Shown here: positions 30,063-50,492 of the stretch, piece by piece
Layout of the letters: each line of letters opens with the position of its first letter
Position numbering within the stretch: the first letter of the stretch is position 1
From: Promethearchaeota archaeon
GTDB taxonomy: Archaea > Asgardarchaeota > Lokiarchaeia > Sigyniarchaeales > SOKP01
Assembly (NCBI GenBank): GCA_019058295.1
Contig: JAHPZI010000028.1
Location: forward strand, 1 to 64,000
Reading direction: 5' to 3'
Length of the DNA: 64,000 nt
Program-made: the position numbers and the translations under genes
Notes under the pieces: generated by a model
Databases searched by the model: none
What the model was told of the DNA's origin: nothing
What the model saw: the letters and a program-made list of their open reading frames with translations, nothing else

Positions 30063-30962
30063 TTATTTGATAACATATGCTAGTTTTTGGCCTTCTTCTT
30101 CTTCAAGATTCAATTCTCTTCGGATAGCATTTCTAATCATATACCCGCCTATATGGAGTATTGTGTCTTTAAGCACATTATCTTGGTCCATTGAAGCATT
30201 ACAAGGATAAGCATGGTGTGCCTTACTGATTTTTTCGTTAAGAGACAATTCACTATGATTAATATATTTTCCTTTTAACTGCTGGACAACATAATATGTA
30301 CTTCCACATGGTGCACTTTGGATTACGCATCTGTCTTCAATAGATTTGCCATCCTTACTCAATAAAAATGATACTATGGGTACTCCAATTTGAAAATGTT
30401 CTATAAAATCATGAATATAATCATGTTTTTTAGTGAGATGGAATCCAATTTTATTATATTCGTTATAATCCTTACTCAATGAACAAAATGGTTTTGGAAA
30501 TGCCGCTTGAATACCATATTTTTCAAAATCTTCAAGCACTTGTACTTGCAACCCCGCAGGAACCCATTTCGGATCTTCTATAGGAATTATAACTGCTTTT
30601 ACTTCTTTATCTTTTAAATAATAGGGCAATTCTGCTAATAAATCTTGATGAATTCCGATAACTATTAAAAAATCAACAGGTGGCAAATTTTTAGGTAAAT
30701 ATTTCTCTGAATCTTCTACAAAATCAGGAAGGCCTTCACCAATTTTCTCATAAAAATAAATTGAGCTTGCATAACTCTTTAAATTTTCACGACATTTATC
30801 GCATTTGAGATTCATTTCCAAATCTTCACATGCTTTACAAAAATCCTCAGAATTTATCAAATTTCCTACAAATTTTGCGGCTAGCATCTCTGTATCTGGA
30901 TCTACACCATACAAAAACCCTAAACTGTATTTTTTATTATTGTCACTCATCACGGGATACAT
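30063..30962 (-). CDS. DUF166 family protein
   Basis: Cys cluster C..C......C..CR, H.DL, PKPFCSL, SAPCGSTYYV, YPCNASM. Confidence 0.75.
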   Translation of the reverse strand: MYPVMSDNNKKYSLGFLYGVDPDTEMLAAKFVGNLINSEDFCKACEDLEMNLKCDKCRENLKSYASSIYFYEKIGEGLPDFVEDSEKYLPKNLPPVDFLIVIGIHQDLLAELPYYLKDKEVKAVIIPIEDPKWVPAGLQVQVLEDFEKYGIQAAFPKPFCSLSKDYNEYNKIGFHLTKKHDYIHDFIEHFQIGVPIVSFLLSKDGKSIEDRCVIQSAPCGSTYYVVQQLKGKYINHSELSLNEKISKAHHAYPCNASMDQDNVLKDTILHIGGYMIRNAIRRELNLEEEEGQKLAYVIK

Positions 30963-32871: not shown

Positions 32872-33714
32872 ATGGATGTCCATAAGATAAAAAAAAAAGT
32901 ATTAAGAGATTTAAGACAAGAAATCCCAAATTTAATTGAAGAAATAGATGATTTTTCTCTTACTCGTCTTAGTAGCAAAAAGAATATAGTTTATGAATTG
33001 ATATTTGATAAAAAATCAGATAAATTACCTAAAGAAGTAATCCTCAAACTTTTCCGAACTGACTATGCTGAAAAAGAATATAACGCTTTAATCAAACTAG
33101 AAAAACAGGGGCTACCAATCCCTAAAGTATTATACTTTAAAAAACCTTATTTAATCCTTAAAAAACTCGAAGGTGTTAATCTTTGCGATTTTATAAATGA
33201 TAACTTAATAAATATAAGCACTATAGATGAATTAGATTTAGAGATCCGTGATAAAATTATAGTTAGCGTAAAGAAATTGGCCGAATGGATAGCTAATTTG
33301 CATAGTCAAAACATAATTACTAAGAAAAAGTCACTTGAGATTATTGTATTTAACAAAGGAGATACTCGATTAAGAGATTTTATATACAACATAACAAAAA
33401 ATGTTATTTATGGTATTGATTTTGAAGAATCATATGACGGAAATTTCTTAGACGATTTAGCTTGGATTTGCTGCTCATTATTAGATACTAATCCCGGAAT
33501 TTTCGAAATACCTGAACCAAAACATAAAATGGAGCTAATTAACTACTTTTTAAAGGAGTATTTCCGTATCAATAAGAAATTTTTGTTCTCATTTAATTAT
33601 TTCGCCGAAAAATTAATTGATTATCTAAACATCGTAATTGAAAGGAGAGCTATAGAATTAAGTCCTGTTAGAAAAAATGTTATTCTGAGAAATATATCTA
33701 AAAAATATACCTAA
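32872..33714 (+). CDS. protein kinase-like phosphotransferase (APH/Kdo/Bud32-like)
   Basis: VILKLF, E..AL, KGDTRLRDF catalytic loop, IDFE. Confidence 0.7.
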   Translation: MDVHKIKKKVLRDLRQEIPNLIEEIDDFSLTRLSSKKNIVYELIFDKKSDKLPKEVILKLFRTDYAEKEYNALIKLEKQGLPIPKVLYFKKPYLILKKLEGVNLCDFINDNLINISTIDELDLEIRDKIIVSVKKLAEWIANLHSQNIITKKKSLEIIVFNKGDTRLRDFIYNITKNVIYGIDFEESYDGNFLDDLAWICCSLLDTNPGIFEIPEPKHKMELINYFLKEYFRINKKFLFSFNYFAEKLIDYLNIVIERRAIELSPVRKNVILRNISKKYT

Positions 33715-33829: not shown

Positions 33830-35074
33830 ATGAGCGATATAGATAAAAAAGATGCTGCTATAGGATTATTAGTTATTGGATTAGTTGCTTTAGCAGGATG
33901 GGTTGGATTTCTTTATGCAAGTCCCGTTACTAAGACGAAAACAGAAGAAGAAGAGGAAACTATATATATTACAACTACAACAAAAACTATAGAGGAAACA
34001 GGTTTACCAGATGATTGGGGTTTAGCAGAATTGGATGCTTCCTTTTCAGTATTTAATGAAACGGGTGGAGAGATATCAGTAAAAATGTCTGATATTTTAA
34101 ATGGTATTTCCCTCTATTATAATCAAGAAGCTGACCCATTGGGTCGTAATACACAAGAGTATAAATACGAGTATATGGAATTACGAACGGTTGACGATCC
34201 ATTATCAGGTCGAACTTTTACTGGTGTAAACATTTTAGATGTATTGGAATCTGCTGGTGTATTTTTTGCTTGGAATATCTCTTGTAAAACAAATAATGAG
34301 GATTTATATCCCAATACTTATTTTAATGTGTCAACTGGAGATATAATTAATTTGGATAGTAAACCATTATATATTCCAACAATTGTTGCTATTGCTGCTG
34401 ATGGATTATGGTTACCTGACCTTGGTTATGGAAATTTTTCAATTATCCAAGGACTATCATCACAATCTATTTATGATCTTAAGGAAATAAGGACTATGTC
34501 AGAATGGGAAGTAGACATAATTGTTGATGGGATTGTAGAATATCAAGTTAATAGGACAAATATTATTGATCCTCATTATCCAGATGGATGGCATTGGGAA
34601 TATCATAAGAATTTTACAGGTTCTGATAATGCATATATGGGTGGTAGAATGACATATAATCGTACATTTTGGGGAGTAAATATGTCATATATAATAAACC
34701 AAACTAGTGCTAAAAATCTTAATTATACTATGAGGGCTATATCTGTAGATGGTTGGTTATCTGATACATATAATAATACTGATATTAACTCTGGTTTAGT
34801 TTATCCAGAACACTATGGATATGTTAATTACACTGATAATCCTCCTACAGGGGTTCCTTTACCAAAAACAGATCTGTTAATAACATTGGTTTATATGGAA
34901 CAAAAATTCTTCGAATACGGTTTATTCGCATCTGATCCAATATGGGATAAGGGATATTACGATGGATATGATGGAGGAGCATTTCATATTGTAATCCCTG
35001 GAATGACAAAAAGTAAACATCCAGGATATGTAAAAAGTATCGAAATAACTACTTATGCTGGTCCAATTCCTTAA
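33830..35074 (+). CDS. membrane-anchored extracellular protein with probably two degenerate sulfite-oxidase/molybdopterin-binding-like domains
   Basis: N-terminal TM and Thr/Glu linker; FTGVNILDVLE and FWGVNMSYII, AISVDGW, GAFHIVIPG...VKSIEI resemble the Oxidored_molyb fold. Confidence 0.55.
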   Translation: MSDIDKKDAAIGLLVIGLVALAGWVGFLYASPVTKTKTEEEEETIYITTTTKTIEETGLPDDWGLAELDASFSVFNETGGEISVKMSDILNGISLYYNQEADPLGRNTQEYKYEYMELRTVDDPLSGRTFTGVNILDVLESAGVFFAWNISCKTNNEDLYPNTYFNVSTGDIINLDSKPLYIPTIVAIAADGLWLPDLGYGNFSIIQGLSSQSIYDLKEIRTMSEWEVDIIVDGIVEYQVNRTNIIDPHYPDGWHWEYHKNFTGSDNAYMGGRMTYNRTFWGVNMSYIINQTSAKNLNYTMRAISVDGWLSDTYNNTDINSGLVYPEHYGYVNYTDNPPTGVPLPKTDLLITLVYMEQKFFEYGLFASDPIWDKGYYDGYDGGAFHIVIPGMTKSKHPGYVKSIEITTYAGPIP

Positions 35075-35136
35075 AAAAATTTTTTTTTTTTATTCAACAA
35101 AATAATATTTATATATAGAAAATAATAATAAAAAAA

Positions 35137-36087
35137 ATGAAAAAAGTTAGATATAACCTTGTTTTTTCATTAATTTTGCTTATTTTTATAGTTAGTTGGA
35201 AAATTCCATTTTCATTTTCATATCCTGGAGATGGGGATTGTAAAAAATATCATGGAATTACGAACATTAATGCTAATTTTATTGAGAATTCTCAAATTGT
35301 TTTGGATGGTGTTTCAAACGAATCTTTTTGGAATGATATTAAAATTAATAATGGATTTATCACAATTCCCACAGCTAATATTCTTGGCAATCCTGGAGAT
35401 GAAATAATTGAAGTTAAATTAATTTTTGTTTTAAATAATCAATATATTTATATTTATTGTGAGTGGAATGATACTACTACCAAGCCAAGTGGTATAAACA
35501 TTTTTGATGGTATTTATTTCTGTTGGAATATAAATACTCCTAATTTTACTTCATATTATCCAAATGATATGAATACAGAGCATATGGGAGGAGGAATGAT
35601 AGACTCCTGGGGAACTGAATTTTTTCTTGGAGATTCTCATGAAAATCATTCAAGTTTTATCGGTAGTGACGGATGTATTCAAGATGATGGTTGGCATTTC
35701 GGAGAAAGTGGTGATATTGAAATTGGTTTTTCATATATTGTTGATCAATCCTATTCTATTGAGATTAAAAGAAAATTAATAACAGACGACGAATATGATA
35801 TTCAATTTTATAAAGGAAAATCATATCTCTTTAATATTGGATTATATAATGATGGATATGGTATAGATCATACGATTTCCTGGATTTATAGGTTAAATAT
35901 ATTAAGTGAGGATAATCCTATTGAGAATGATGATGATGATGATAAATCGAGTAAAAATGAAACACAACTCAATATCGGATTAATTATAATAATAGGTACT
36001 ATATCAATAATTTTAATTATAGCGATAATTACATATTACAAATCTAAAATTACTCAAAATAAAACTAGTATAAAAAATGCAGACTAG
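35137..36087 (+). CDS. secreted, C-terminally anchored DOMON/ethylbenzene-dehydrogenase-gamma-like (putative heme b) protein
   Basis: Signal peptide, IVLDG...E.FW, IYIYCEWND, conserved Met then IDSW, YSIEIKRKL.T.D..DIQF, late His; C-terminal TM. Confidence 0.6.
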   Translation: MKKVRYNLVFSLILLIFIVSWKIPFSFSYPGDGDCKKYHGITNINANFIENSQIVLDGVSNESFWNDIKINNGFITIPTANILGNPGDEIIEVKLIFVLNNQYIYIYCEWNDTTTKPSGINIFDGIYFCWNINTPNFTSYYPNDMNTEHMGGGMIDSWGTEFFLGDSHENHSSFIGSDGCIQDDGWHFGESGDIEIGFSYIVDQSYSIEIKRKLITDDEYDIQFYKGKSYLFNIGLYNDGYGIDHTISWIYRLNILSEDNPIENDDDDDKSSKNETQLNIGLIIIIGTISIILIIAIITYYKSKITQNKTSIKNAD

Positions 36088-36679
36088 AAATTTTAATATT
36101 TTAATCGCAGCAATATGTGTTGGTTTAACAACATTTTGGCTTACTGCATATAATATTGTAAGATTAGGAATAGATCCTATTAAATATATTCAACATAATA
36201 CTTCAGAGGCTTTTTCAGATGAAGAGTCAGAAGATTCAAAAACATTAATTACTATTAAAGGAAAAGTTAAAGAAGATTTACGTCTTTCATTGTCTGATCT
36301 CAAATCAGATAAGTATAGACAGGTAACAGATGATTTTGACTTTAAAAATTCATATGGCACAGAATGGACTACGGAATATACAGGAACGACTCTTTGGAGC
36401 ATATTAGAAGCTGAGGGGATATTAGAATCTGATGATTTAACATTTATATTTATTGGACAAGATGGATATGAATCTCCAGTAGCTCTATCAATTGAAGATA
36501 TTGCCAAGAAATATGAAAATAAAGTAATATTAGCTTATGAGGTAGAAGGTCAACCTTTAACTGATGATAATGGTCCTGTAAGATCTATAATAGACAGAGA
36601 AGTTATACAATACCTTGAACCAAATCACTATAATTCTCAGTTTGCAGTAAAAGATTTGAAATATGTTGAGATCAAATAG
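36077..36679 (+). CDS. membrane-anchored sulfite-oxidase-fold (Oxidored_molyb-like) protein lacking the Mo-ligating Cys
   Basis: ITIKGKV...LSLSDL, YTGTTLWSILE, GQDGY, ILAYE..GQPL, GPVRSII, VKDLKYVEI; no Cys in the soluble domain. Confidence 0.78.
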   Translation: MQTRNFNILIAAICVGLTTFWLTAYNIVRLGIDPIKYIQHNTSEAFSDEESEDSKTLITIKGKVKEDLRLSLSDLKSDKYRQVTDDFDFKNSYGTEWTTEYTGTTLWSILEAEGILESDDLTFIFIGQDGYESPVALSIEDIAKKYENKVILAYEVEGQPLTDDNGPVRSIIDREVIQYLEPNHYNSQFAVKDLKYVEIK

Positions 36680-36694
36680 GAGTGATATATTAAA

Positions 36695-37333
36695 ATGGAT
36701 GATTATAAACAAAATAGTGTCCAAAAAGAAGAGAATTCAAATCAATTAGAAGAATTTCGAGAAACGGGAATGAGTTTAGAGAAATCTAATAGACTTTCTA
36801 CTTTAGATTTAATCTACTCCGCAATATTAGGAGTTATGGGAGGATTTATCTCCAGTCTCATACCATTTAGTATTTTAATCAAAGTATGGTATCCTCTAAC
36901 GGGAGGTACTCAATTAATATCCGGACATCATGTTATGTGGGCCACTATAGTATATGGTTTGACACGTAAAAAACAAAATATCATGGTAACTATGTCGATA
37001 AAGGGATTGCTAGAATTTTTATTAGGAGATCCATGGGGGATACTCATTATTTTTGTTAATCTAATGGAAGGTGTATGTTTGGTATTAGGGTTCTTTTTTA
37101 TGGAAAAAATTGGAGAAGGTGAGACTAAACTGGGATGGGGCATTGCGGGTGGTTTCGGTAATTTTTTCCAAGCACCATTTTTTTGGATACTTAATCAGAG
37201 ATTTCATTTACATTGGACATTATGGCTCTTGGCTTTTATATTCGCATTTGTTTCTGGCATATTAATAACGGGAGTATTAGGGAAAGTGATTAAAGAATAT
37301 TTGATTAAAGCCGGGGTTCCGACAACATTTTGA
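36695..37333 (+). CDS. ECF transporter substrate-specific (S) component
   Basis: ~210 aa, about 6 TM, STLDLIYSAILG start, SG....GVLG..I...L.KAGV end resembling YkoE-type S units; directly upstream of A and T genes. Confidence 0.8.
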   Translation: MDDYKQNSVQKEENSNQLEEFRETGMSLEKSNRLSTLDLIYSAILGVMGGFISSLIPFSILIKVWYPLTGGTQLISGHHVMWATIVYGLTRKKQNIMVTMSIKGLLEFLLGDPWGILIIFVNLMEGVCLVLGFFFMEKIGEGETKLGWGIAGGFGNFFQAPFFWILNQRFHLHWTLWLLAFIFAFVSGILITGVLGKVIKEYLIKAGVPTTF

Positions 37334-37340
37334 ATAGGAG

Positions 37341-39161
37341 TTGAACCTTAATATTTCCCGTGATAAAACAGCTCTCTCTTTTAAGAACTTCTCTTTTATT
37401 TATGGTACAGACAAATTAAAAATCCCATCAGTTTCAAATATAACTTTTGATTTGAAAGAAGGAGATGTTTTAATATTAGCTGGTGCAAGTGGAAGTGGTA
37501 AATCTACCCTATCTTATGCTATGAACGGGATTATACCTTGGAGACTAAAGGGTCTAATGAAAGGAGACGTTGAAGTCTTTGGAAAAAGTATTTGGGACTA
37601 TAATTTCATGGAATTAAGTAAAATAGTTAGTTTAGTTAAGCAAAATCCATTAGAACAATTAGTTACATTTACTGTGAAGGATGAGATCGCATTTGGACTT
37701 GAAAACCTAAAATATCCAATTGAAGAAATTGAAAAAAAAATCGAAGAAATTACTAAATTTTTAGAAATTGATCATTTATTAGAAAGGGATATCGATCAAT
37801 TAAGTGGAGGACAAAAGCAGCTTATAATCTTAGCATCATTTTTAGTAATGGAGCCTAAAATATTAATTTTGGATGAGCCGATTGCCTTCTTAGATCAACA
37901 TTCAGAGAGTTTATTATTAAACCGATTAAAGAAACTGATTCAATCACCCAATTATAACCTAACTCTCATAATTATTGAACATAGATTATCAAGGGTTGTA
38001 AATTTAGCGAATAAAATTATAGTATTGTCCGATGATGGAGAAGTTATTCTAAAAGGTTCAGTTTCTGAAATTTTAAAAGATAGATTTGATGAATTAAAGC
38101 TATGTAATGTGAGGGTTCCTTGGATAACAAATATCTATAGTGAATATAGAAAGATTACTACTAGAAATGCAGATGATTTTGGCGTGCCAACTAATTTCCA
38201 ACAACTCTTGAAAATTCCTGAAAATTTAGAAACAGAACAATTAAAACAAATATATCAGCTTCTAATCGATATAGAAATAAGACCAAAACATTTAGAGAAA
38301 TTAGAATTATATGAGGAAAAAATAGAGTTCGATGAAATCTATATTGAGACCTTAAAAAGGCTCTCTGAAAATAATAGAAATCAATCCATTTTCAATCAAG
38401 CTGAAGAAAATATTATTTTAGAAACGAGAGACTTATCATTCGAATATCCAAATACGGGAATTAATGCTATTAATAATTTATCTATTAAAATACATCAAGG
38501 AGATTTCATAGGTTTAGTTGGACCAAATGGTTCAGGAAAGACAACCTTATTATATTTATTAGCAAATCTTTATAAACCTACATCAGGAGAGATATTCTTT
38601 AACAATCAGAACCTCACAGAATTCAATCCTTATGAGTATGCTCTTCATATTGGATTTATATTTCAAAATCCTGAAAATATGATTTTTAAGCATACCCTTA
38701 GAGATGAGATTTTATATGGTCCTAAAAATTTTGGCATTCTGAAGGAAATTAATGAAGAATATCTTTCTAAATTAATTTGTTTAATTGGAGAAAATGATCC
38801 CTCAAAAAATCCTTTTAATCTAAGTTGGGGTCAAAAAAGAAGATTAAACCTTAGCTCCATATTTGTATACAATCCTGAAATAATTCTATTAGATGAACCT
38901 TTCATTGGGCAAGATCAGCGGACAATTGATTCAATTATAGAAACCCTATTTATTGAAAATAAAAGAGGAAAGACAATTATTATCTCTTCTCATGATTATC
39001 ATTTACTTTTAAAATATACTAAAAGAATAATCGAGCTGAACAAAGATGGAACTCTGAAAGACTATGATACAAAAGATACTTATTTTTTAAAGCATCAAAA
39101 TCTAGGGCCAGTCATTTTTTTGAATAAAATTAAAGAATTAATAGGAGAGCGTAATATTTAA
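37341..39161 (+). CDS. ECF transporter fused double ATPase (A-A')
   Basis: Two ABC domains: GASGSGKS/LSGGQ/LDEP and GPNGSGKT/LSWGQ/LDEP; QNP Q-loops. Confidence 0.92.
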   Translation: MNLNISRDKTALSFKNFSFIYGTDKLKIPSVSNITFDLKEGDVLILAGASGSGKSTLSYAMNGIIPWRLKGLMKGDVEVFGKSIWDYNFMELSKIVSLVKQNPLEQLVTFTVKDEIAFGLENLKYPIEEIEKKIEEITKFLEIDHLLERDIDQLSGGQKQLIILASFLVMEPKILILDEPIAFLDQHSESLLLNRLKKLIQSPNYNLTLIIIEHRLSRVVNLANKIIVLSDDGEVILKGSVSEILKDRFDELKLCNVRVPWITNIYSEYRKITTRNADDFGVPTNFQQLLKIPENLETEQLKQIYQLLIDIEIRPKHLEKLELYEEKIEFDEIYIETLKRLSENNRNQSIFNQAEENIILETRDLSFEYPNTGINAINNLSIKIHQGDFIGLVGPNGSGKTTLLYLLANLYKPTSGEIFFNNQNLTEFNPYEYALHIGFIFQNPENMIFKHTLRDEILYGPKNFGILKEINEEYLSKLICLIGENDPSKNPFNLSWGQKRRLNLSSIFVYNPEIILLDEPFIGQDQRTIDSIIETLFIENKRGKTIIISSHDYHLLLKYTKRIIELNKDGTLKDYDTKDTYFLKHQNLGPVIFLNKIKELIGERNI

Positions 39162-40046
39162 ATGTCAAGAAAGAATAAAAGTTTGGATCATAAGAGGCTG
39201 ATGTTTGCCTATTTCCCAGGAAATTCAATCTTTCATAAATTAAATCCTCTTTCAAAATTAATATTTCTCTTACTCCTTACTATAATTATATTACTAGTTA
39301 GGAGCTTAATATTCATGGCAATGGTTTCGTTATTTGTTATTTTTTTAGCTTTAATAAGCGGAATTTCCTTAAAGAATCTTTATTTGAAACTAAGATTTAT
39401 AGTCTCAATCCTAATAGTTAGTGTAGTTTTGAATATATTTTTTAATGCTATTCCCAGTGAAGAAGAAGTTATCTTGTTTTACTTATTCGGTATTGAATTT
39501 CTACCTATTAGAAAATTAGCCATATATTATGCCTTTAGAGCTTTTTTTCTCGTCTTAACATTGTTTACTTCTTCAATTATCTACTCCAATACAACTAATA
39601 TGCGAGATTTTGTATATGCATTGATGAGATTAAAAATCCCTTATCGATTTTGTTATGCGTTTATGGTTGGGATAAGATATATTCCTTTAATAGAACAAGA
39701 GGCAAAAACGATATCATTAGCCCAAAGAGCAAGGGGTTTTGGTTATGAGAAAGTAAATAGTATAAAGAAAGCTTATAATTGGATCTCTGAACGTTTACTT
39801 ATTACCTTAGTTTCAATACTTAGAAAAGCTCATACTACATCTATTTCAATGGAAAATAGATGTTTTGGCATTTATAAAGATCGGACTAATTTAATTAAAA
39901 TTAGATTTAAAGCAATAGATATTGCTTTTATTATAATTTTTGGATTTCTTTTCACTTTAATTTTATTTTATTTATTTCAATTGCTCCCGTTACCACAATT
40001 CCCTTCTCTTTATCACATGTATCTAAAGTATTTTAATATTTTTTAG
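39162..40046 (+). CDS. ecfT: ECF transporter transmembrane (T) component
   Basis: H.LNPLSKL, RYIP, AQRARG and SMENRCF motifs. Confidence 0.9.
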   Translation: MSRKNKSLDHKRLMFAYFPGNSIFHKLNPLSKLIFLLLLTIIILLVRSLIFMAMVSLFVIFLALISGISLKNLYLKLRFIVSILIVSVVLNIFFNAIPSEEEVILFYLFGIEFLPIRKLAIYYAFRAFFLVLTLFTSSIIYSNTTNMRDFVYALMRLKIPYRFCYAFMVGIRYIPLIEQEAKTISLAQRARGFGYEKVNSIKKAYNWISERLLITLVSILRKAHTTSISMENRCFGIYKDRTNLIKIRFKAIDIAFIIIFGFLFTLILFYLFQLLPLPQFPSLYHMYLKYFNIF

Positions 40047-40862
40047 AAGTTCTAAATAACCACCATACTTTTCTCGCGTAATTGAATATTTTTTAGTAGT
40101 AGAACCCCATCTTATATTATTTCGAATATTATGTAAAAAGCCCTTTGCATTAATAATCCTAGTACCCCCAACTACATTAATTCCCCTTTTAAAGAGAGGA
40201 TCGGGTAAAAATCCAGCAGTGGGCCCTATAATCGAAGTTTTTTCTGCATTTGAGCAAAATTTTAGAATATCATCGATTGTATCGTTCAATATTGTGGTAC
40301 TAGTTAATAATACTTTATTGCAGTCTTCTAAATTAGTGGGATCTAAAGTAACTACCCAGTTCTTTTCTTTTTTCACTAAATCCTCTTTTAATTCAATAAT
40401 AACTAATTTATTCCCTCTTTCCTCAATCTTTTTAACAAGCGGTGGAAAAAAACCGACCATTCCCACTATATCTTTTTCATTTATGTTTAATAAACCTAAA
40501 GAATCTGAAGTATGATCAAAGGAAAAATTAGTTTCTTTAAAAATAAATTGACTAATTGCATTAATAGCTCCCATACTTAAGGATTTTTTATACAAATTAT
40601 TGGATGTAAAATCCTTTACTAAATCCATTGGAGAGGTATCTTTATATTCTTTTGAATCGATTTTAAGAATTTGTTTTTTAACTTCTTGAGTTAATGCTAT
40701 AAAAAAAATACCGATTGAGTTATCTTCTAATATTACTGCTGCAAAATTTGATTTTTTTGCTTTCTCATCAACAGTTGGAACAACAATTTCTTTAATTAAT
40801 GGAATTTGAACTCTATTAGCAATATCATTTAAGATTACTTGATATTCGGAAGATATTGTCAT
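40023..40862 (-). CDS. DUF364 family (Rossmann-like) protein
   Basis: SLSMGAINAISQ, VGMVGFFPPL, TSTTILNDTID, IIGPTAG, LF.RG..VVGG. Confidence 0.8.
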   Translation of the reverse strand: MTISSEYQVILNDIANRVQIPLIKEIVVPTVDEKAKKSNFAAVILEDNSIGIFFIALTQEVKKQILKIDSKEYKDTSPMDLVKDFTSNNLYKKSLSMGAINAISQFIFKETNFSFDHTSDSLGLLNINEKDIVGMVGFFPPLVKKIEERGNKLVIIELKEDLVKKEKNWVVTLDPTNLEDCNKVLLTSTTILNDTIDDILKFCSNAEKTSIIGPTAGFLPDPLFKRGINVVGGTRIINAKGFLHNIRNNIRWGSTTKKYSITREKYGGYLELLKNIKIL

Positions 40863-40907
40863 GTGTAAATTAATTAATTGTAAAATTTAAAAGAGGTTCT
40901 AATAACT

Positions 40908-43097
40908 TTATTGATATGGTTTAATAACGTGAATAACATCATCAAAATCGATTCCAAGCTCTTTGACTAACTCAATTGTTGGGCAACCAAACGCATTCCA
41001 ACCACGTTTTTGATACACAGCCTCTTGAAGTTTAAAATACTGAATCTCTCTATATTTTCGCAAAATTTTCATTTTTTCTTCGGTAGATTTACCTTCGATA
41101 TCTATATCGAGCTCCTTTAATTGTTCATCATATCTTTTTTGGCGACTTTCATATTCCATTTTTGTTACTGGTCCCATTGCTCTATAAGGTATATTGGAAT
41201 CATGTTCGCTCAAACCTTTACCTTGACGAATGTTAAAAATCCTTTGTAAATTATAGACACGTTCAGACATTCGGATAAGATCATCAGGATCTGCATTGAT
41301 ACCTGTTACTGCCGTATAATAATCTGCATACCATTGAACATGTTGTGGAATTTTCGCTTGTAATAATTCCCCTGCCATTTTAATCGGCAAATCAAAATTC
41401 GATGGAGGAGGCACATCATTCCAAGGAAGTTTACAGAGCCCACATAACCCAAACCAGGTTCTCCATAAAGGAAACCAATATAATGCTTTAGCTTTATCTT
41501 CAAATGTTGGAATTGAGTGGCGTACAACATCTTCAAAAATCAACCATGCTTCATCATGTTGAGGCCCTTTGTTTGTGAAACCATAGCCTCCTTGTTGGGT
41601 GAGTGATTCCTTGGTAACATATTCAGAAAACTCAAGTCCTTTATGCTCCATTCCAATATCTTGTAAAAAATTAGGATCTCCACTATATTTCTCAGCGAAT
41701 AGTTTTTTTAATCGTTTTATTCCTTGACCAACGACCAGACCAAAACCTTCTCCTCGTGCCATTTGATGGATTAATTCAATTGCAGCTTCAGCATTTCCAA
41801 AATGCAACTCAAGTCCGCCTGTAATTTCTTTATTTATAATTCCCTCCTCATAACACTCCATAACAAAGGCAATTCCTGTTCCTACACTTATAGTATCTAA
41901 ACCATAGGTATCACAATAAAAATTAGCTTCCATTACCCATTGAGGATCCCATACACCCCAATTTGATCCACATCCAGCAATAGTTTCATATTCGGGTCCA
42001 TCAACAATTACTTTTTCTCCTTTAAACTGTCCGGTCATAACTTTATATTTTTCAACCCAATGACTACAGCTAACGCTACACCCAAAAAAGCATCCATCTG
42101 ATCCTTTTCCCGTACGTTCCCCGAAAAGATCAGCCCATACTTGGCGTTTATAAGGGATTTCTTTATCTTTAATTTCACGATGTTGACCAAATCGAAAATT
42201 TTCAGTTGGGAGTAAATCTGTAATATTCATAATATCTGGAAGGTATCCCGTTCCTACAATTCTCATTTGATTCATAGAAGGATCGTATGTTATTATTTCT
42301 TTTTTGTGTTTCCTCCCGATCTCAATTAATTTTTCTGGATCAGCAGGATTATTTTTTTTAACATCATATGGAGGAGATCGACATATTAATGCTTTAATTC
42401 TTTTGTTAGCAAATACACTCCCAATTCCTCCCCTTCCTGCTTGTTTACAAGAAGCCCATTTCCTTTTTCGTGCATACCACGAAGAATTTAGCATCCCCCA
42501 TCTTGTGTGCCTTGCGGCAGGTCCTGAACTAACAACAGAAACCATCTGCTTTTCTTTTTCCGTAGATTCTTTCGCAAATTTTTCTGTTAATTGTTGAGTA
42601 AGAAGATGTGAATAGTCTGAAAGATTGTCTGATTCTTCAACCCTTATAATTTGAACCATGTGATCTTGACCATTAATAAATATCAACACATCATTTTCGG
42701 TTTTTCCTTGAATTTCAAGGACATCAAAACCAGAACATTTTAGATAGGGTCCAAAATGCCCTCCTACATTGCTGTCTATCACAATTCCGGTCAGAGGGGA
42801 GATTGTTGTAACTATAGATTTGCCTCCTCCAGGATAATATGTACTTGCCCCTAAAGGACCTGTTGCCCAACAGATTTCATTTTCAGGGTCATCCCATTTA
42901 ACAATTCTGTCTTTCGGTAAGCTATTCCACATAAGCCAGAGATCAAAACCCCTCCCACCGATGAATTTTTCTTTCATTTCATCGGTTATAGGTTTAATTT
43001 TAATTTCGTTTGTTGTTAAATTTATGTATAAAGTTCGATTTGTATATCCCCGAACCATGTCTTGATGTTCATACTTGAGTTCTGCTAAAATCAACAC
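40908..43097 (-). CDS. aldehyde:ferredoxin oxidoreductase family (tungsto/molybdopterin) enzyme
   Basis: FIGGRG, SPLTG..DSNVGG, AGRGGIG, C..C...C, GPEYET, CDTYGLDTIS, GLC. Confidence 0.93.
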   Translation of the reverse strand: MLILAELKYEHQDMVRGYTNRTLYINLTTNEIKIKPITDEMKEKFIGGRGFDLWLMWNSLPKDRIVKWDDPENEICWATGPLGASTYYPGGGKSIVTTISPLTGIVIDSNVGGHFGPYLKCSGFDVLEIQGKTENDVLIFINGQDHMVQIIRVEESDNLSDYSHLLTQQLTEKFAKESTEKEKQMVSVVSSGPAARHTRWGMLNSSWYARKRKWASCKQAGRGGIGSVFANKRIKALICRSPPYDVKKNNPADPEKLIEIGRKHKKEIITYDPSMNQMRIVGTGYLPDIMNITDLLPTENFRFGQHREIKDKEIPYKRQVWADLFGERTGKGSDGCFFGCSVSCSHWVEKYKVMTGQFKGEKVIVDGPEYETIAGCGSNWGVWDPQWVMEANFYCDTYGLDTISVGTGIAFVMECYEEGIINKEITGGLELHFGNAEAAIELIHQMARGEGFGLVVGQGIKRLKKLFAEKYSGDPNFLQDIGMEHKGLEFSEYVTKESLTQQGGYGFTNKGPQHDEAWLIFEDVVRHSIPTFEDKAKALYWFPLWRTWFGLCGLCKLPWNDVPPPSNFDLPIKMAGELLQAKIPQHVQWYADYYTAVTGINADPDDLIRMSERVYNLQRIFNIRQGKGLSEHDSNIPYRAMGPVTKMEYESRQKRYDEQLKELDIDIEGKSTEEKMKILRKYREIQYFKLQEAVYQKRGWNAFGCPTIELVKELGIDFDDVIHVIKPYQ

Positions 43098-43246: not shown

Positions 43247-44116
43247 ATGGTTGATACAGCCACTAAAGTTCGAGAAATACAGAAAAAATTTAATATCATT
43301 GGAAGATCAGAGGAACTAAAAAAAATAATATTGGCACGTGTAGTTGGAAAGAACATATTAATTGAAGGTGAAGTTGGAGTTGGTAAAACAACCTTAGCAC
43401 AGGCAGTTTCCAACTACTTTGATTCAAATTTTTATCGAATAGACTGTTCAGAAGAAATTTTGACCCATAGTTTAGTAGGTCATTGGGATCCTCCACTTGT
43501 TATTGCAAAAGGATATGAAGAGGATTCTTACGTTTATGGACCGCTTGCCTTAGCCATGTCGAAAGGGGGCTGTTTATTTATTAATGAAATTAATAGAATG
43601 CCCGAAAGCACTCAAAATGCGTTACTAACTTCATTAGACGAGAAAATTCTTGATATCCCCAAATTAAAAACCATTAAAGCAAACAATGAATTTTTTGTTG
43701 TTGCAACCTTAAATCCTTCGGCACATGTTGGAGTAACGGCATTAGGAGAAGCTTTAAAAGATAGATTCATCTGGATTAAATTAGATTATCAAAAACCAGA
43801 AGAAGAAATCGAAATTATTAAAAAGGAAGTTGATATTGATGATGATATTGATAATAAAATCATACAGATATCACAAGAAATAGTACAAGCAACGAGAGAT
43901 AACACATCTATACGTAGAGGAAGTTCAATTAGAGGTGCCATTGATTTAACAGCATTAATAACTCAATATGATAACAATACCAGCACTAAAAACTGGATTG
44001 AAGCTGCAATAATGGCGCTTTATAATAAAATTGAAATGGAAGATGGTGTAGCAAAATCGAAAAAAGAAATTATCACTGAAATCGTTTTATCTATATTAAA
44101 TGACTCGGATTTTTAG
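43247..44116 (+). CDS. MoxR-type AAA+ ATPase
   Basis: GEVGVGKT, FINEINR (Walker B variant), QNALL, TLNP, EALKDRF, SIRG. Confidence 0.9.
   Translation: MVDTATKVREIQKKFNIIGRSEELKKIILARVVGKNILIEGEVGVGKTTLAQAVSNYFDSNFYRIDCSEEILTHSLVGHWDPPLVIAKGYEEDSYVYGPLALAMSKGGCLFINEINRMPESTQNALLTSLDEKILDIPKLKTIKANNEFFVVATLNPSAHVGVTALGEALKDRFIWIKLDYQKPEEEIEIIKKEVDIDDDIDNKIIQISQEIVQATRDNTSIRRGSSIRGAIDLTALITQYDNNTSTKNWIEAAIMALYNKIEMEDGVAKSKKEIITEIVLSILNDSDF
44107..44116 (+). promoter_or_regulatory. candidate -1 ribosomal frameshift site G_GAU_UUU_UAG
   Basis: Slippery heptamer fills the last two MoxR codons, inside the 13-nt window (44104-44116) where the -1 (vWA) frame is already open. Confidence 0.55.
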
Positions 44117-45231
44117 TAATCGATGATTTCTCAGAGGAAGAATCCAATGAGATTGAGAGAAAGCGGCTTAATGTTAGGCTTACGGAGAGCCCTCCTGATA
44201 AAGAAATCCTAAGATTAGAAATAATTCGGAGCAAAAAGAAAAAACCTGATTACTATCGCCACTTAGCAAATACATTGGATTATAAGCAAATAAAAGAAAT
44301 GACTTATTTAGCAATCCAATATAAAAATCTTGAAGCTATTATGGGTATGCTTAAGTCAAACGTTTACGCAGCGACGGATGCTTTAGACTGCGAAGATGGG
44401 GTAAAATTTTTTACCGAAAAATCTAAAGAATCAAATATGGTTATGCCGGAAATATATTTCTTTATCAGACGACCGATTTCGCCAAAATATAAAAATATTT
44501 TTAGAAGGCTTGCCCGTCAGAGTATTTTGAAAACTTCCTTGAAAATCACTAGCAGAGGTATTAAAGGAACATTGAAAAAGATTTTCCCTTATTATGAAAT
44601 TGGAATGCCTGAGTTTGATCTGGATGAGACCATTCAACATAATCCGCTAAAAATTTATGAAAAAAGCCTTTCTCATAAAGATATTTATGGAATTAAAAGG
44701 CAACAGCAAAAAAGGAATGTGGTTTTAATTCTTGATACGAGTGGCAGTATGTATGGAAAAACATTATTAAATGCCGCTCTTACAACATCTGTTCTAGCCT
44801 ATAATATGGAAAAGGAAAATTATGGTATAGTCCTTTTCAATTCAACAGCTATGACATTAAAAAGAATTAATGATAAAAAATCAATTATCTCTATTATCGA
44901 TGAAATTCTAGATTCTGAGGCTGTAGGATTTACTAACATCCAAATTGGTTTAGAGAAAGGTTTAAAACAATTAAATCAAGTTAAAGAAAATAGAAAACAT
45001 AAATTTGGTATTTTAATTACTGATGGAAATTATAATCGTGGAGAAAATCCTCTTACTATCTCAAAAAAATATCCTAAATTACATGTAATAGGTATGCCTG
45101 CAGAGAATGACGCTGATAGAGGTCTTGATACTTGTCGAGAACTTGCCAAAGCTGGAAAAGGAAAATTTTTTGCCGTAACCGATTATAAAGAAATTCCGAG
45201 AGCGCTCATAAATTTATTGTCTCAAACTTAA
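44113..45231 (+). CDS. von Willebrand factor A domain protein; frame open from 44104, first near-canonical start only at TTG 44275
   Basis: MIDAS DTSGSM, TNI..GL, LITDG; upstream in-frame LVIDDFSEEESNEIERKRLNV... is stop-free and protein-like. Confidence 0.85.
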   Translation, partial: LVIDDFSEEESNEIERKRLNVRLTESPPDKEILRLEIIRSKKKKPDYYRHLANTLDYKQIKEMTYLAIQYKNLEAIMGMLKSNVYAATDALDCEDGVKFFTEKSKESNMVMPEIYFFIRRPISPKYKNIFRRLARQSILKTSLKITSRGIKGTLKKIFPYYEIGMPEFDLDETIQHNPLKIYEKSLSHKDIYGIKRQQQKRNVVLILDTSGSMYGKTLLNAALTTSVLAYNMEKENYGIVLFNSTAMTLKRINDKKSIISIIDEILDSEAVGFTNIQIGLEKGLKQLNQVKENRKHKFGILITDGNYNRGENPLTISKKYPKLHVIGMPAENDADRGLDTCRELAKAGKGKFFAVTDYKEIPRALINLLSQT

Positions 45232-45542: not shown

Positions 45543-48500
45543 ATGATGAAAAAAAGTAATAAAATAAAAATTTTAGCGGTTTTACTTTTTTCTATGATTG
45601 TTTTTACATTATTTATTCAAGTGAGTTTTCTTTCGCTCTTGAATAAAGACGAAACTCAGGAACAACCAATTCAAAAGGCTAAAGAAATAAAATCTAGTGC
45701 TGTTATAACAGAATTCTTATATATAAACCAAGAGGATTACAATAATAATTGGACCGTCGTAAAAGATAAGTATTCATTTATTACAGGTTCCGGAACACTA
45801 GGAGATCCTTATCTGATAAGTAATACTGAATTTGATGGTCAAAATATCCATGGAGCTATTACAATAAATAACTCAAAAAATGTGAACTTTAAAATTAAAA
45901 ATTGCCGATTTTATAACATTGGGTCATCAGATTCCCCAAGTGCAGCAATACAAATAATAGATTCCCGGAATGGAACAATTACAGGATGTGATTTTTCTAG
46001 TTCCGATGACGGCAATATTGGAATAAAAATGTTTAATGGAACTTGGAAAATGACAATTGCTAATAATAATTTTACTAATTTCAAATACGCAATTTATGCC
46101 GAATCAAGTTATCAAAATATTATTTCAGGAAATAATATCGATGAAAATAATGTTGGAATTTACTTAAAATTATGGTGTAATATGAATGAGATTTATAATA
46201 ATTATCTTAGTGAGAATTCTATTGCGGGTATATTTTTAACTGATAGTTGCTGGAATAATAAAATTTCAGGAAATATCATTAATGATAATGTTGTTTTCGG
46301 GGTACTCATAGCATTCTCTGGTAATACCAAAATTTACGGAAACAATTCAATTAATAATAATGGTTATGGAATATATATGACAGGATCCGATTGGAATAAT
46401 ATCGAAAATAATACAATTATATCAAATAATAACGATGGCGTTTATATATCTGGTTCTTGGTGGAACAATTTTACAAGAAATCTAATAAAGGATAATGTAG
46501 AAGTTGGTGTACATATCGATGAATCTAAGGGTGATAGTCAAAATAATTACATATACGAGAATGATTTTATTAATAATGGAGAACACGCGATTGATTACGA
46601 TTATTCAAATAATTGGAATAAAAATAATGTAGGCAATAAGTGGGATAATTATACCCAATTAACTGGTGGGAAGGATGCCGATGATGATGGTATCGGAGAT
46701 GCTCCATATAATTTCACTGGTGGTCGTGATTATTATCCAATCTATAACGATGGACTTGACGCTGGACCTTATCCTGGTGTGATTTGGATAGATGAAAATA
46801 GTCCACAATGGAATTGGACATGGGCAAAAGATAGATATTGGTTCACTGGAGGGGATGGGGGGGTTTTAAATCCTTATACAATTTCTCCTAACATATTCTG
46901 GGAGGGTAAAATTGATGGACTTGGACAATATTCATGTATTACTCTCGTTAATACTCATGGACCATATTTTATTCTCGAGGATTTAACTCTCTACAATTCG
47001 GGATCAGCTGGAATAAATATAACTGATTCTGGAGTTGGAAAAATCATTAATTGTAATAGTTCTAACAATGGAGATGGAATATTCCTCGATGAAGCGCAGT
47101 TTATCAATATTTCACAATGTATTCTCAATGATAATTCCCGTGCCGGCATATTTGTAACCAATGATTCTATGAACAATCTTGCTTGGGATAATTCTCTTTC
47201 GAATAATGATTATGGTATATATATAGAAGATGATAGTGATAATAATAATTTCACGTCTAATATTATCTTAAATAGCGATCTTTATGGAGCCTATGTTTCT
47301 GGTGCTAAAGTAGATGTTAATGATACTGTGTTTTATGAAAATACATTTCAAAATAAACTAACAGGCGATAATGCATATGATGATGGACCTGATACAATAT
47401 GGTATCTTAATGAAAGGGGCAATAGTTGGGATGATTATCCTGATGCCCCTATATATGGAAAAGATGCCGATGATGATGGTATTGGAGATAAATCTTATGA
47501 TAAAATTTATGGCAGTGCTAATTCGATTGATAAATACCCTATTTATTTCGATGATTTAGATGAGTATGCTCTATATATTGATGATAATGCAACTGGTCCA
47601 GGCGCACATAATTGGACTTGGGCAAGTAAAAGATTATTTATTACAGGTAATGGCTCAGCAATCGATCCATATCTCATCAAAGATGTGAGTTTTAATGGAA
47701 GTAAGTTATGGGATAACAGTTGGCCAAAATGCGGTATAACAATTAAAAATTCTGCTGAGTATAATATATATTTTAAAATCGAGAATTGCACTATTTATGA
47801 CGCCATAGATGCAGGGATCTATTTAAATAACGCATCAAGAGGAACAATAATCAATAATTCTATCGATATTTCTAATAATCCGAATTTAAAAATTGGGATT
47901 CATTTAACAAATTCAGCTAATTTAAACAATATATCTTACAACACTCTGAATTCTTTTGAGAAAGGACTGTTTATGAATTATTCCTGTTACAGTAATTATA
48001 TTAAGGGAAATTTTATGGAATGGAACGACTGGGGAATTATTTTAGAACGTTGGTGTTCAAGTAACGTACTTATTAACAATACATTATCTAATAACAATTT
48101 TGCTGGATTATTTTTCAATAATTCATGTTACGTGAATAATGTAACTCAGTGTACAATTAGTAATAATTTAGATGGAATACGATTTAGGAAAAGTTGTAAG
48201 AGTAATGAGATCTTTGAGAATGATATTAAACGTAATAATCAATTTGATAGTAAAGGTGTACTTATATTAGATAATGATTCTGCATATAATATCTTTTACG
48301 AAAATAATTTTACTGGAAACACTATACATGTTCTTGATGATGGGACTTACAATAGATGGAATACAACAGTCTATGGAAATCAAATTGGAAATATTTGGGG
48401 AAATTATACCGAAATCCCTGGCCATGCAGATGATGATGACGATGGGATCGGAGACGTACCATACCCAATACGTAATTCGACAGGAGCTTGGATAAACAAC

Positions 48501-50492
48501 GATTTTTGTCCAATATATGATGATGGTCATAATGGAGATAAAGTTTTTATTGATGGTTTGGGCGTGAGCCCCGGTTATATGAGTTGGAACACGGTAGAAA
48601 AGAAAAGTTGGTGTTCGGGATCGGGATCGCTTTCTGATCCATATATCATTAGTGGCTTAAGAATTGATGCGGGAGGTTTAAATAGTTGTATTATCTTAAG
48701 AGATTCATCTAAAAATGTCATGTTTTATGATTGTAAAGGCATTAATGCTGAAGATGGCGGAGGTAAATATTTTGCAGGATTAAGATTAATCAATGTATCG
48801 AATGTAACAATAACTAATTGTAATTTTTCTTTAAATGGAGATTTTGGAATATATATAACTGGGTTCTATTGGAATCCCTGTGAGAAAATTAAAATTAAGG
48901 AAAACACCTTAGAAGATAATGGAATGAGCGGAATATATGGATTTGATTCTATTATTGAATCTGAAATTCATAAAAACAATATCACTGATAATGAACTCCA
49001 TGGAATTCATCTTTATAAACACTGCGATAATAATTCAATTAAATGGAATACTATTAATGATCATAGTAATGGAGCTGGAATTCGCATAGAAAATATTTCC
49101 GAAAACAACCTAATTTATAATAATTGGCTAACATTAAATAAATACGGGATTAATTTAGATGATGTCAATTATAATGATATAATAAAAAACGATATAGCTG
49201 ATTCAACTACAGATGGAATTTATCTAGAGGAACGTTCCGGTAATTTCTTTATTGAGGATAACAGAATTTACTCCAGTACTGAAAGTGGAATAAATTTTGT
49301 AACTGTTTCTGAATTTTGGTATTTTCGAAATAATGTTACAATTATTGATAATGAAATCTACGATAATCATGAATATGGTATAGAGTTAAGAGATGCTGAA
49401 TTCTGCTTTATTATTAACAATACTTTGAGGATTAACGATAGAGGGATTGGAGTTGTTAAACGATGCTCACAAAATAAGATTATAGGTAATGATATCTTTG
49501 ATAATTTTATAGTAGGACTATATTTTGATATTGATTGTGGAGGCAACTATATATATAAAAATAATTTCACTGGAAATTTTGAACACGCCGATGATTCTGC
49601 CTTATTTCCCATAGAAAATCAATGGTATTTTAATCTTAAGGGGAATTATTGGGATGATTACGGCGACCAAGGTGGTAAAGATAGCAATGATGATGGTGTT
49701 GGAGATGATGGTATCCCTTATAATGTACCAAGCCTCATGAATTTAAAAGATCTTTATCCTATTTGGTGGGACGCCCCGAATTTTACAATTCTTAAACCAC
49801 AACAAAACGCGCAACTCTCAGCAGAACAAAATCCAGAATTCGTAATTAAATTTGATGAGGGAGAATCATATCACTTATGGTATGAAATTGTAGGAGTTGG
49901 AACAAGTCCTATAACTGTTAAATTCACTCCCCCCAAAATAGAAGGAGAGGATGATTACATTGAAAAGATTGATAATAATTTATGGAAGAATACTCCCCAA
50001 GGACAAAGAACAATTAGATTTTATACTAACGATAGTAGAGGCTATGTTCGCTATAATGATGTTTTGATTACAAAATTAAATGCAACAATCAAAGAAGCTC
50101 CTCCCCCAACTGCCGTTGATGATGATGATGATGATGGTGCTGGTAAAGATGAAGAAGAAGAAGGATTACCTTGGTGGCTTCAAGCGATATTTACAGGTAT
50201 TATAAGTGCGACCGCGGGTTTGGTAATTAAGATGTCTTATAGCGCACATAAACGGAAAAAAGAACTATACAGAAAAGTATCTGATAGTTTTGATAGAATT
50301 GATAATCTGGAGATATTTTTACAAGATAAATTAGGTACGGAAGAATGGGCTAAACTTAAAGGACCAATTCAACAATATCAGAATCATGAGATCTCTTCAA
50401 AAAAATTGATAAAAGAGAGTAAGAAGTCTGTTGGGAAAAGATTTATAGAATTATTTATTAGACCCAAACCTAAGAAAAGAATGAAATCCTAA
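45543..50492 (+). CDS. large cell-surface protein with four NosD/PbH1 beta-helix modules, TM anchor and cytoplasmic tail
   Basis: N-terminal signal/TM; four modules G.G...PY.I ... GN.W..Y ... D.DDDG.GD ... D.YP; poly-Asp linker, TM near aa 1545, ~80-aa tail. Confidence 0.88.
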   Translation: MMKKSNKIKILAVLLFSMIVFTLFIQVSFLSLLNKDETQEQPIQKAKEIKSSAVITEFLYINQEDYNNNWTVVKDKYSFITGSGTLGDPYLISNTEFDGQNIHGAITINNSKNVNFKIKNCRFYNIGSSDSPSAAIQIIDSRNGTITGCDFSSSDDGNIGIKMFNGTWKMTIANNNFTNFKYAIYAESSYQNIISGNNIDENNVGIYLKLWCNMNEIYNNYLSENSIAGIFLTDSCWNNKISGNIINDNVVFGVLIAFSGNTKIYGNNSINNNGYGIYMTGSDWNNIENNTIISNNNDGVYISGSWWNNFTRNLIKDNVEVGVHIDESKGDSQNNYIYENDFINNGEHAIDYDYSNNWNKNNVGNKWDNYTQLTGGKDADDDGIGDAPYNFTGGRDYYPIYNDGLDAGPYPGVIWIDENSPQWNWTWAKDRYWFTGGDGGVLNPYTISPNIFWEGKIDGLGQYSCITLVNTHGPYFILEDLTLYNSGSAGINITDSGVGKIINCNSSNNGDGIFLDEAQFINISQCILNDNSRAGIFVTNDSMNNLAWDNSLSNNDYGIYIEDDSDNNNFTSNIILNSDLYGAYVSGAKVDVNDTVFYENTFQNKLTGDNAYDDGPDTIWYLNERGNSWDDYPDAPIYGKDADDDGIGDKSYDKIYGSANSIDKYPIYFDDLDEYALYIDDNATGPGAHNWTWASKRLFITGNGSAIDPYLIKDVSFNGSKLWDNSWPKCGITIKNSAEYNIYFKIENCTIYDAIDAGIYLNNASRGTIINNSIDISNNPNLKIGIHLTNSANLNNISYNTLNSFEKGLFMNYSCYSNYIKGNFMEWNDWGIILERWCSSNVLINNTLSNNNFAGLFFNNSCYVNNVTQCTISNNLDGIRFRKSCKSNEIFENDIKRNNQFDSKGVLILDNDSAYNIFYENNFTGNTIHVLDDGTYNRWNTTVYGNQIGNIWGNYTEIPGHADDDDDGIGDVPYPIRNSTGAWINNDFCPIYDDGHNGDKVFIDGLGVSPGYMSWNTVEKKSWCSGSGSLSDPYIISGLRIDAGGLNSCIILRDSSKNVMFYDCKGINAEDGGGKYFAGLRLINVSNVTITNCNFSLNGDFGIYITGFYWNPCEKIKIKENTLEDNGMSGIYGFDSIIESEIHKNNITDNELHGIHLYKHCDNNSIKWNTINDHSNGAGIRIENISENNLIYNNWLTLNKYGINLDDVNYNDIIKNDIADSTTDGIYLEERSGNFFIEDNRIYSSTESGINFVTVSEFWYFRNNVTIIDNEIYDNHEYGIELRDAEFCFIINNTLRINDRGIGVVKRCSQNKIIGNDIFDNFIVGLYFDIDCGGNYIYKNNFTGNFEHADDSALFPIENQWYFNLKGNYWDDYGDQGGKDSNDDGVGDDGIPYNVPSLMNLKDLYPIWWDAPNFTILKPQQNAQLSAEQNPEFVIKFDEGESYHLWYEIVGVGTSPITVKFTPPKIEGEDDYIEKIDNNLWKNTPQGQRTIRFYTNDSRGYVRYNDVLITKLNATIKEAPPPTAVDDDDDDGAGKDEEEEGLPWWLQAIFTGIISATAGLVIKMSYSAHKRKKELYRKVSDSFDRIDNLEIFLQDKLGTEEWAKLKGPIQQYQNHEISSKKLIKESKKSVGKRFIELFIRPKPKKRMKS

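Follow-up and report, generated by a model that had tools for sequence, protein, structure and literature searches.

A candidate system for surface capture and energy-coupling factor import of the molybdenum/tungsten cofactor in Promethearchaeota

How does an archaeon rich in tungsten and molybdenum enzymes obtain their pterin cofactor when the genes for making it are not recognisable in its genome? The question is raised by a stretch of 64,000 nucleotides, the window in what follows (positions 1 to 64,000 of contig JAHPZI010000028.1, assembly GCA_019058295.1), from a Promethearchaeota archaeon. The window is contig C28 of the source genome, labelled G000, which comprises 3.2 Mb in 30 contigs with about 29% G+C. 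It carries six co-oriented genes encoding three putative surface proteins, here P1, P2 and P3, and the S, A-A' and T components of an energy-coupling factor (ECF) transporter. Judging from the sequence data assembled below, we consider it likely that this operon is a salvage system which imports the pyranopterin (molybdopterin) cofactor for tungsten and molybdenum enzymes. The first-pass annotation of the window had proposed surface capture and ECF import of the molybdenum or tungsten cofactor (Moco or Wco) or of a pterin. This proposal is supported by the missing biosynthesis genes, by the replacement of a biosynthesis cluster in the same chromosomal slot, by the complementary distribution of the two systems and by fusions of S to a domain of the sulfite oxidase (SUOX) type.

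The six genes lie on the plus strand with operon-like spacing. P1 (33830..35074) is a membrane-anchored surface protein with two SUOX-like domains, P2 (35137..36087) a beta-sandwich protein of the EB_dh/NxrC/DOMON-like type and P3 (36077..36679) an anchored single SUOX-fold domain without the molybdenum-ligating (Mo-ligand) cysteine. They are followed by the S component (36695..37333), by A-A' (37341..39161), a fused ECF ATPase, and by the T component (39162..40046). P2 and P3 overlap by 11 nt, while P3 and S are separated by 15 nt, S and A-A' by 7 nt and A-A' and T by 0 nt. Two minus-strand genes converge on the operon, one encoding a DUF364/DUF4213 protein (40023..40862) and the other a 729-residue tungsto/molybdo-pterin enzyme of the aldehyde ferredoxin oxidoreductase (AOR) family (40908..43097). 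All eight open reading frames of this arrangement, including the close spacing and the convergence described in the first-pass annotation, were recovered. Close homologues of the operon proteins all came from metagenome-assembled genomes (MAGs) of Promethearchaeota (Lokiarchaeia). The order P1-[P2]-P3-S is kept in all of the approximately 60 distinct loci long enough to show it, with one orphan second copy of S as the single exception, and the same S/A-A'/T order was seen in more than 50 loci. In the loci surveyed P3 is always encoded immediately upstream of S, and P1 was seen in every locus long enough to reveal it.

We then set the need for the cofactor against its supply. G000 carries 12 AOR genes, three PF00384 (bis-PGD-type) genes and one Cys-bearing SUOX enzyme. 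Profile searches of this genome gave no match to MoaC, the MoaA C-terminal domain, MoeA_N or MoaE. Likewise, tblastn with the proteins of G144, a genome of the same genus, detected no TupA, TupB, MoaC, MoaE, MoaB or either copy of MoeA in G000, and G144 MoaA retrieved unrelated radical-SAM genes only. From the same query set, AOR, MoxR and VWA proteins matched the window at 86, 81 and 86% identity, respectively. Thus none of moaA, moaC, moaE and moeA, which the first-pass annotation had suggested looking for, is detectable in G000. No WtpA/ModA-type protein was recognisable in this genome either. Two candidates for the binding of tungstate or molybdate were rejected: a PBP_like_2 match turned out to be a LysR regulator, and an SBP_bac_11 protein on contig C22 matched no WtpA or ModA model.

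Comparison of the two same-genus loci indicates what the operon has replaced. The G000 locus reads P1-P2-P3-S-AA'-T-<DUF364-<AOR-MoxR-VWA and the G144 locus tupABC-moaC-moaA-moaD-moaE-<AOR-moeA-moaB-moeA-MoxR-VWA. The window AOR shares 86% identity and synteny with the AOR inside the G144 moa/moe cluster. Because the flanking AOR, MoxR and VWA genes match whereas tup, moa and moe do not, the slot is orthologous and the ECF operon of G000 stands where G144 has tungstate uptake and cofactor synthesis. In other genera, biosynthesis-only loci have the same upstream neighbours as the ECF loci, namely DUF166, a kinase-like gene and two coiled-coil proteins. The linkage to Mo/W genes expected at first pass was therefore borne out in that the operon occupies the same slot as, or lies beside, a tup-moa-moe cluster. 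Adjacency to DUF364 and AOR, on the other hand, was rejected as a conserved signal since it is sporadic across loci: DUF364 comes after T in no more than about five distinct loci and an AOR in this genus alone, and elsewhere the slot after T is empty or occupied by a peptidase S9 or a pyridine-nucleotide oxidoreductase.

The distribution of the two systems was examined in 121 genomes of the source organism's family, 83 of which are at least 90% complete, and in a phylum sample of 151 Asgard genomes. AOR genes were present in all 121 family genomes, S in 48, MoaC in 55 and MoeA in 61. Both systems occurred in 8 genomes, the ECF system only in 40, Moco genes (MoaC/MoeA) only in 54 and neither in 19; for the 83 genomes at or above the completeness threshold, the corresponding counts were 6, 32, 41 and 4. 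In two of these last four, a contig end truncates an ECF-type locus, and in a third the sequence breaks off ahead of the informative genes. Both exclusive states were found within each of the genera g1, g2, g3 and g5. TupA, present in 45 family genomes, always accompanied Moco genes and was not seen in any of the 40 ECF-only genomes. Of the eight genomes that combine the two systems, four have a moaC-moaA-moaD-moaE-moeA-moaB-moeA cluster after T, either directly or following tupABC. Across the phylum sample, AOR occurred in 148 of 151 genomes, this type of S in 54, MoaC in 74, both in 0 and neither in 23. Family f12 has 17 genomes with S, and the two without it are exactly the two with MoaC; S and MoaC were found in 15 and 9 genomes of f7, in 5 and 1 of f22 and in 1 and 1 of f2, respectively. 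Independent support comes from about eight genera each containing both exclusive states, as counted within genera. Taken together, these gene counts are evidence that loss of cofactor synthesis and of TupA/TupB-type tungstate uptake has been repeated across AOR-reliant Asgard archaea.

The same pattern was observed in two closed genomes. The operon is present in the complete chromosome of the cultured Ca. Lokiarchaeum ossiferum (CP104013), which has 7 AOR genes, and in Ca. Harpocratesius repetitus (a single contig of 4.36 Mb), which has 6; no match to MoaC or MoeA_N was obtained in either genome. These two organisms and a Promethearchaeum MAG encode A-A' and T as a single fused polypeptide of about 865 residues (L088:7533-10136, L090:1476-4061 and L091:6708-9332, for L. 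ossiferum, the MAG and H. repetitus, respectively). A second type of fusion bears on the substrate. In families f7, f12 and f22, S is a protein of about 350-460 residues with a C-terminal Oxidored_molyb-like domain, as judged by Pfam scores of up to 37 bits (E 2.7e-9), and the P3 profile reveals further cases. An extra hydrophobic helix lies between the S part and the SUOX-like part of these fusions. In f7, the gene before the fused S encodes an anchored calcineurin-like phosphoesterase, itself fused to a weak Oxidored_molyb-like domain (L114:9698-11356(-), L115:7139-8401(-)), which may trim dinucleotide forms of the cofactor at the surface.

What, then, are the surface proteins? P1 and P3 each have one hydrophobic N-terminal helix, and P1 has in addition a Thr/Glu-rich linker and 12 N-x-S/T sequons; the predicted anchors of P1 to P3 and these sequons fit exposure at the cell surface. 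Since phmmer searches of PDB sequences with individual P1 and P3 queries were unproductive, family profiles and structural models were needed. P3 matched Pfam Oxidored_molyb (E 2.3e-11), and its family profile matched the sulfite dehydrogenase SorA (2ca3, E 1.3e-16) and, weakly, PruR (7kom). P1 had no Pfam match. In its AlphaFold model (predicted local distance difference test, pLDDT, 79; predicted template modelling score 0.77), residues 64-226 superimposed on PruR 7kom (Z 13.8, root-mean-square deviation 2.3 A over 118 residues) and on chicken sulfite oxidase 3hbg (Z 13.7). Residues 223-409 were aligned with the P3 profile by hhalign with 90% probability (E 1.5e-6). The hhalign match of the N-terminal half to P3 was weak (18% probability), so that the fold of this half is assigned from the structure match. 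The SUOX fold which the first-pass annotation had suspected, twice in P1 and once in P3, is thus present in both proteins by profile and structure.

Neither protein has the catalytic Cys of the SUOX enzymes. P1 has no conserved Cys, and the sole Cys of P3, residue 14, lies inside the membrane anchor, in agreement with the first-pass description of a soluble domain free of Cys. The Mo-ligand column was defined by an alignment of P3 to three true SUOX enzymes encoded in these genomes, one of them from G000. All three enzymes carry Cys in this column. In contrast, none of 81 P3 homologues does: 75 have an aromatic residue (Tyr in 51, Trp in 18 and Phe in 6) and the remaining 6 another residue. 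The fold motifs DGY and GPxR are retained in P3, and in the alignment the hairpin region with the ligand position exceeds that of the SUOX enzymes from these genomes by 9-12 residues. A predicted complex of S with P3 scored 0.02, which counts neither for nor against binding.

These features recall PruR of Agrobacterium tumefaciens and relatives (7kos, 7kom, 7kp2, 7rkb), likewise a small exported SUOX-fold domain without an enzymatic partner domain and with an aromatic residue where the Cys would be. PruR has Trp at the Mo-ligand position and is a proven pterin binder; it acts as a signalling sensor, is encoded with a DcpA-type GGDEF-EAL protein and holds small pterins of the monapterin type in a truncated pocket (PMC11194511). 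However, the hairpin truncated in PruR is lengthened in P3, and the partner of P3 is an importer instead of a GGDEF-EAL protein. For the Asgard proteins, unlike PruR, it is the full Mo/W cofactor that the genomic context indicates.

P2, found in about two thirds of the loci, had been described at first pass as DOMON/EB_dh-like, and its fold agrees with this. The Pfam match to EB_dh was weak (E 0.004). The P2 model (pLDDT 75) matched NxrC 7b04_C by Foldseek (E 2.4e-9) and EbdC 2ivf_C with a template modelling score of 0.71; CBM9 modules were matched too, and the family profile matched NxrC with E 5.7e-5. Hydrophobic segments lie at the two termini of P2, a signal or anchor at the N-terminus and an anchor at the C-terminus, and Met145 and His245 are invariant in the family.

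The transporter itself has the make-up of a group-I ECF system: consecutive genes encode a PF09819 S component, two ABC_tran domains and a T component of the CbiQ type (E 1e-24), as the first-pass annotation had read them. S scored 39.8 bits against PF09819, above the cut-off, was very distant from YkoE 5EDL (E 0.005) and had no match in NCBIfam. An S profile retrieved just 95 relatives among 1.84 billion protein representatives. S is thus, on sequence grounds, a distant, narrow and separate Asgard subfamily within the YkoE family. Outside Asgard archaea the system was not found: only Promethearchaeota were returned, the S-profile motif scan of 185,579 species genomes being one that picks up close relatives alone. 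The S of a genome from another genus (G184:C160, L010) is 88% identical to that of the window, compared with 80% for a genome of the same genus (G138:C78, L020), a possible sign that the ECF cassette has moved laterally. ECF cores with outward-facing helpers are known from Ni/Co systems with NikK/NikL/CbiN and from the haem system LhaSTA with its Isd receptors. Their helper folds and substrate class differ from those seen here, and none of these helpers is known to be a cofactor-binding enzyme fold without its catalytic ligand.

For the substrate, the chemical form imported, the hand-off from the surface proteins to S and the role of P2, we infer the following scheme. P1, with two domains, and P3, with one, would capture cofactor released by neighbouring microbes or held on proteins of theirs. 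The aromatic residue in place of the metal-ligating Cys would permit reversible binding of the cofactor without its use. The surface proteins would then hand the cofactor to the dedicated group-I ECF importer formed by S, A-A' and T, which would carry it inside, where AORs and other Mo/W enzymes would be loaded. The imported form is most likely metal-loaded and not a precursor, because MoeA, MoaB and TupA/TupB are undetectable along with MoaA, MoaC and MoaE; in some lineages a precursor is possible. The simplest account is one of functional replacement, in which lineages without tungstate uptake and the pterin pathway keep an importer with cofactor-fold receptors. We lean, more broadly, towards the view that many Asgard archaea, L. 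ossiferum included, are Mo/W-cofactor auxotrophs that import the metal-loaded cofactor from partners through an ECF system with decommissioned enzyme-fold receptors.

Several observations weigh against this scheme. The completeness of the source genome is estimated at 79%. Incompleteness was nevertheless rejected as the cause of the missing Moco genes, since the syntenic slot is contiguous in the window; the explanation is further countered by the 32 ECF-only genomes of at least 90% completeness and by the two closed genomes with the same pattern. Eight family genomes have both systems. Conversely, the 23 phylum genomes that have AORs but neither MoaC nor a recognisable S include 11 of the 13 genomes of f5 (e.g. 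G003, G045, G068), and these 11 carry several AORs; another supply route must therefore exist, and the ECF system is not the sole answer. The Fisher values of 4e-10 for the family and 6e-23 for the phylum overstate significance, the genomes being related. S belongs to the Pfam family of YkoE, the thiamine/hydroxymethylpyrimidine (HMP) S component. Free Moco is labile, and assembly of the bis-pterin W site of AOR and of the dinucleotide cofactors of PF00384 enzymes is hard to explain without MoeA or MobA. Finally, some ECF-only genomes, those of genus g2, retain MoaD and MoaB next to the operon, and there an unfinished form of the cofactor may be imported.

The g2 genes lead to a first alternative, that the ECF system imports a precursor, such as cyclic pyranopterin monophosphate (cPMP), metal-free molybdopterin or a degradation product, finished inside by e.g. 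DUF364, MoxR-VWA or the kinase-like protein. cPMP is the chemically most stable intermediate of the pathway, and the MoxR-VWA and kinase-like genes are conserved flanks of the operon. These flanking genes, however, are found equally beside biosynthesis loci and hence are not substitutes for them. Moreover, G000 and L. ossiferum are without MoaE, MoeA and MoaB matches, and the loss of TupA-type uptake together with biosynthesis leaves no recognisable source of metal. We regard import of a precursor as unlikely for the system as a whole.

Import of thiamine or HMP, import of metal only and outward trafficking all fit the counts poorly. Under the first of these, the operon would be a YkoEDC-like importer of thiamine, HMP or an unrelated vitamin, pterin or haem, and the complementarity with Moco genes would reflect cassette turnover at a variable locus. 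The resemblance to YkoEDC of Bacillus subtilis, a thiamine/HMP system, extends to the S family PF09819, with its weak likeness to YkoE 5EDL, a fused double ATPase resembling YkoD, a CbiQ-type T component and a single operon. The slot between T and MoxR is indeed variable, P2 has the fold of the haem-b-binding EbdC/NxrC, and SUOX folds of the PruR type bind small non-Moco pterins. Yet the Asgard S is very distant, the thiamine context is absent, and the system has two or three obligatory extracytoplasmic partners or a fused SUOX-like domain, whereas YkoEDC has none. ThiC, taken as a control both for this explanation and for gene detectability, was present in 110 of the 121 family genomes, G000 included, whatever their ECF state, and no thiamine pyrophosphate (TPP) riboswitch was found in the window. 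The first-pass annotation had named grouping of S with thiamine/HMP components, and binding of these compounds, as a threat to its own proposal; the distance from YkoE, the lack of the riboswitch and the independence of ThiC from the ECF system all speak against it. In addition, the complementarity recurs in f7, f12 and f22, where the locus context differs, TupA loss tracks the ECF-only state, a SUOX domain is fused to S itself, and no other cofactor need was shown to track the ECF system. A vitamin importer of this kind thus seems quite improbable.

Group-I ECF systems for metals exist, and the ECF operon replaces a cluster starting with tupABC, TupA being absent wherever the ECF system is alone. 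It could accordingly be asked whether the transporter imports tungstate or molybdate, as Co/Ni ECF systems do for their metals, with the Cys-less SUOX domains as oxyanion receptors. But metal uptake cannot replace the missing MoaA/C/D/E pathway in organisms with 7-14 AORs, and a positive correlation with MoeA would be expected where a negative one was seen, which makes this explanation very unlikely. Finally, an ECF system working outwards, to deliver the cofactor to an extracytoplasmic redox module of SUOX-like and DOMON-like proteins, would agree with the resemblance of P2 to haem-binding electron-transfer subunits and with work on Listeria FmnA/EetB, where ECF-dependent trafficking of a cofactor (flavin) to extracytosolic proteins is said to occur, but is scarcely credible since ECF-only genomes cannot make the cofactor to be exported and P1 and P3 lack the catalytic Cys.

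Cofactor salvage by import, the reading we prefer, would depart from the way in which Moco is usually viewed: because of its great lability, each cell that depends on it is commonly assumed to synthesise its own. Uptake is established only for Caenorhabditis elegans, which meets its Moco need with mature, probably protein-bound, bacterial cofactor (PMC13653925, PMC9793310). A Moco transporter is not known in that eukaryote or in any other organism, whereas here a candidate transporter and receptors are at hand in a prokaryote, and many Asgard lineages appear to be obligate cofactor auxotrophs. Our literature searches found Moco uptake only in nematodes, without a transporter. They returned no description of a prokaryotic Moco importer, and nothing on Moco auxotrophy or an ECF system of this kind in Asgard archaea. 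As goods derived from partners, the MK-D1 paper names B12, biotin, lipoate and TPP; Moco is not among them. If correct, our reading would provide the first identified Moco/Wco transporter in any organism and a metabolic dependency not listed before in the syntrophies on which models of eukaryogenesis draw. The candidate importer and receptors are named and cloneable, and the occurrence of the pattern in a cultured strain with a closed genome makes the idea testable now. A defined carrier or transporter for Moco would be of interest to those working on its delivery, too.

The genes flanking the operon are shared between ECF-type and biosynthesis-type loci. Downstream lie a MoxR AAA+ ATPase and a VWA protein (43247..45231, plus strand), and upstream a gene for a kinase-like protein of 280 residues with weak RIO1/Bud32 matches (32872..33714, plus strand). 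Since both locus types have these flanks, neither MoxR-VWA nor the kinase-like gene is importer-specific. By analogy with CoxD/CoxE, the MoxR-VWA pair may be a maturation chaperone for Mo/W enzymes. The kinase-like gene, considered as an ECF-specific part, was rejected in view of its presence in 100 of the 121 family genomes, in both the ECF and the biosynthesis states. Kinase-like proteins of 260-285 residues are also encoded beside the ECF operon in L. ossiferum (L088:6614-7426(-)) and in family f7 (L114:11340-12101(-), L115:8514-9296(-)). Further upstream, a divergent DUF166 gene (30063-30962, minus strand), whose product weakly matches a DfsP selenoprotein model, keeps its position in most loci.

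Other genes were noted in single lineages or in the window alone. A genuine Cys-bearing SUOX enzyme fused to a DUF4079/cytochrome-b561-like membrane domain was observed at three loci (L022:7431-8480(-), L028:11495-12544 and L018:1015-2067(-)); in g2 this fusion is encoded immediately after T, with MoaD and MoaB next in order. One Lokiarchaeial genome has, just after T, a gene for a calmodulin-like protein of 148 residues with four EF-hands (L024:11422-11868 (+)). In the window itself, a 1649-residue protein (45543-50492, plus strand) with eight NosD/right-handed beta-helix repeats is probably an adhesin-like protein of the cell surface.

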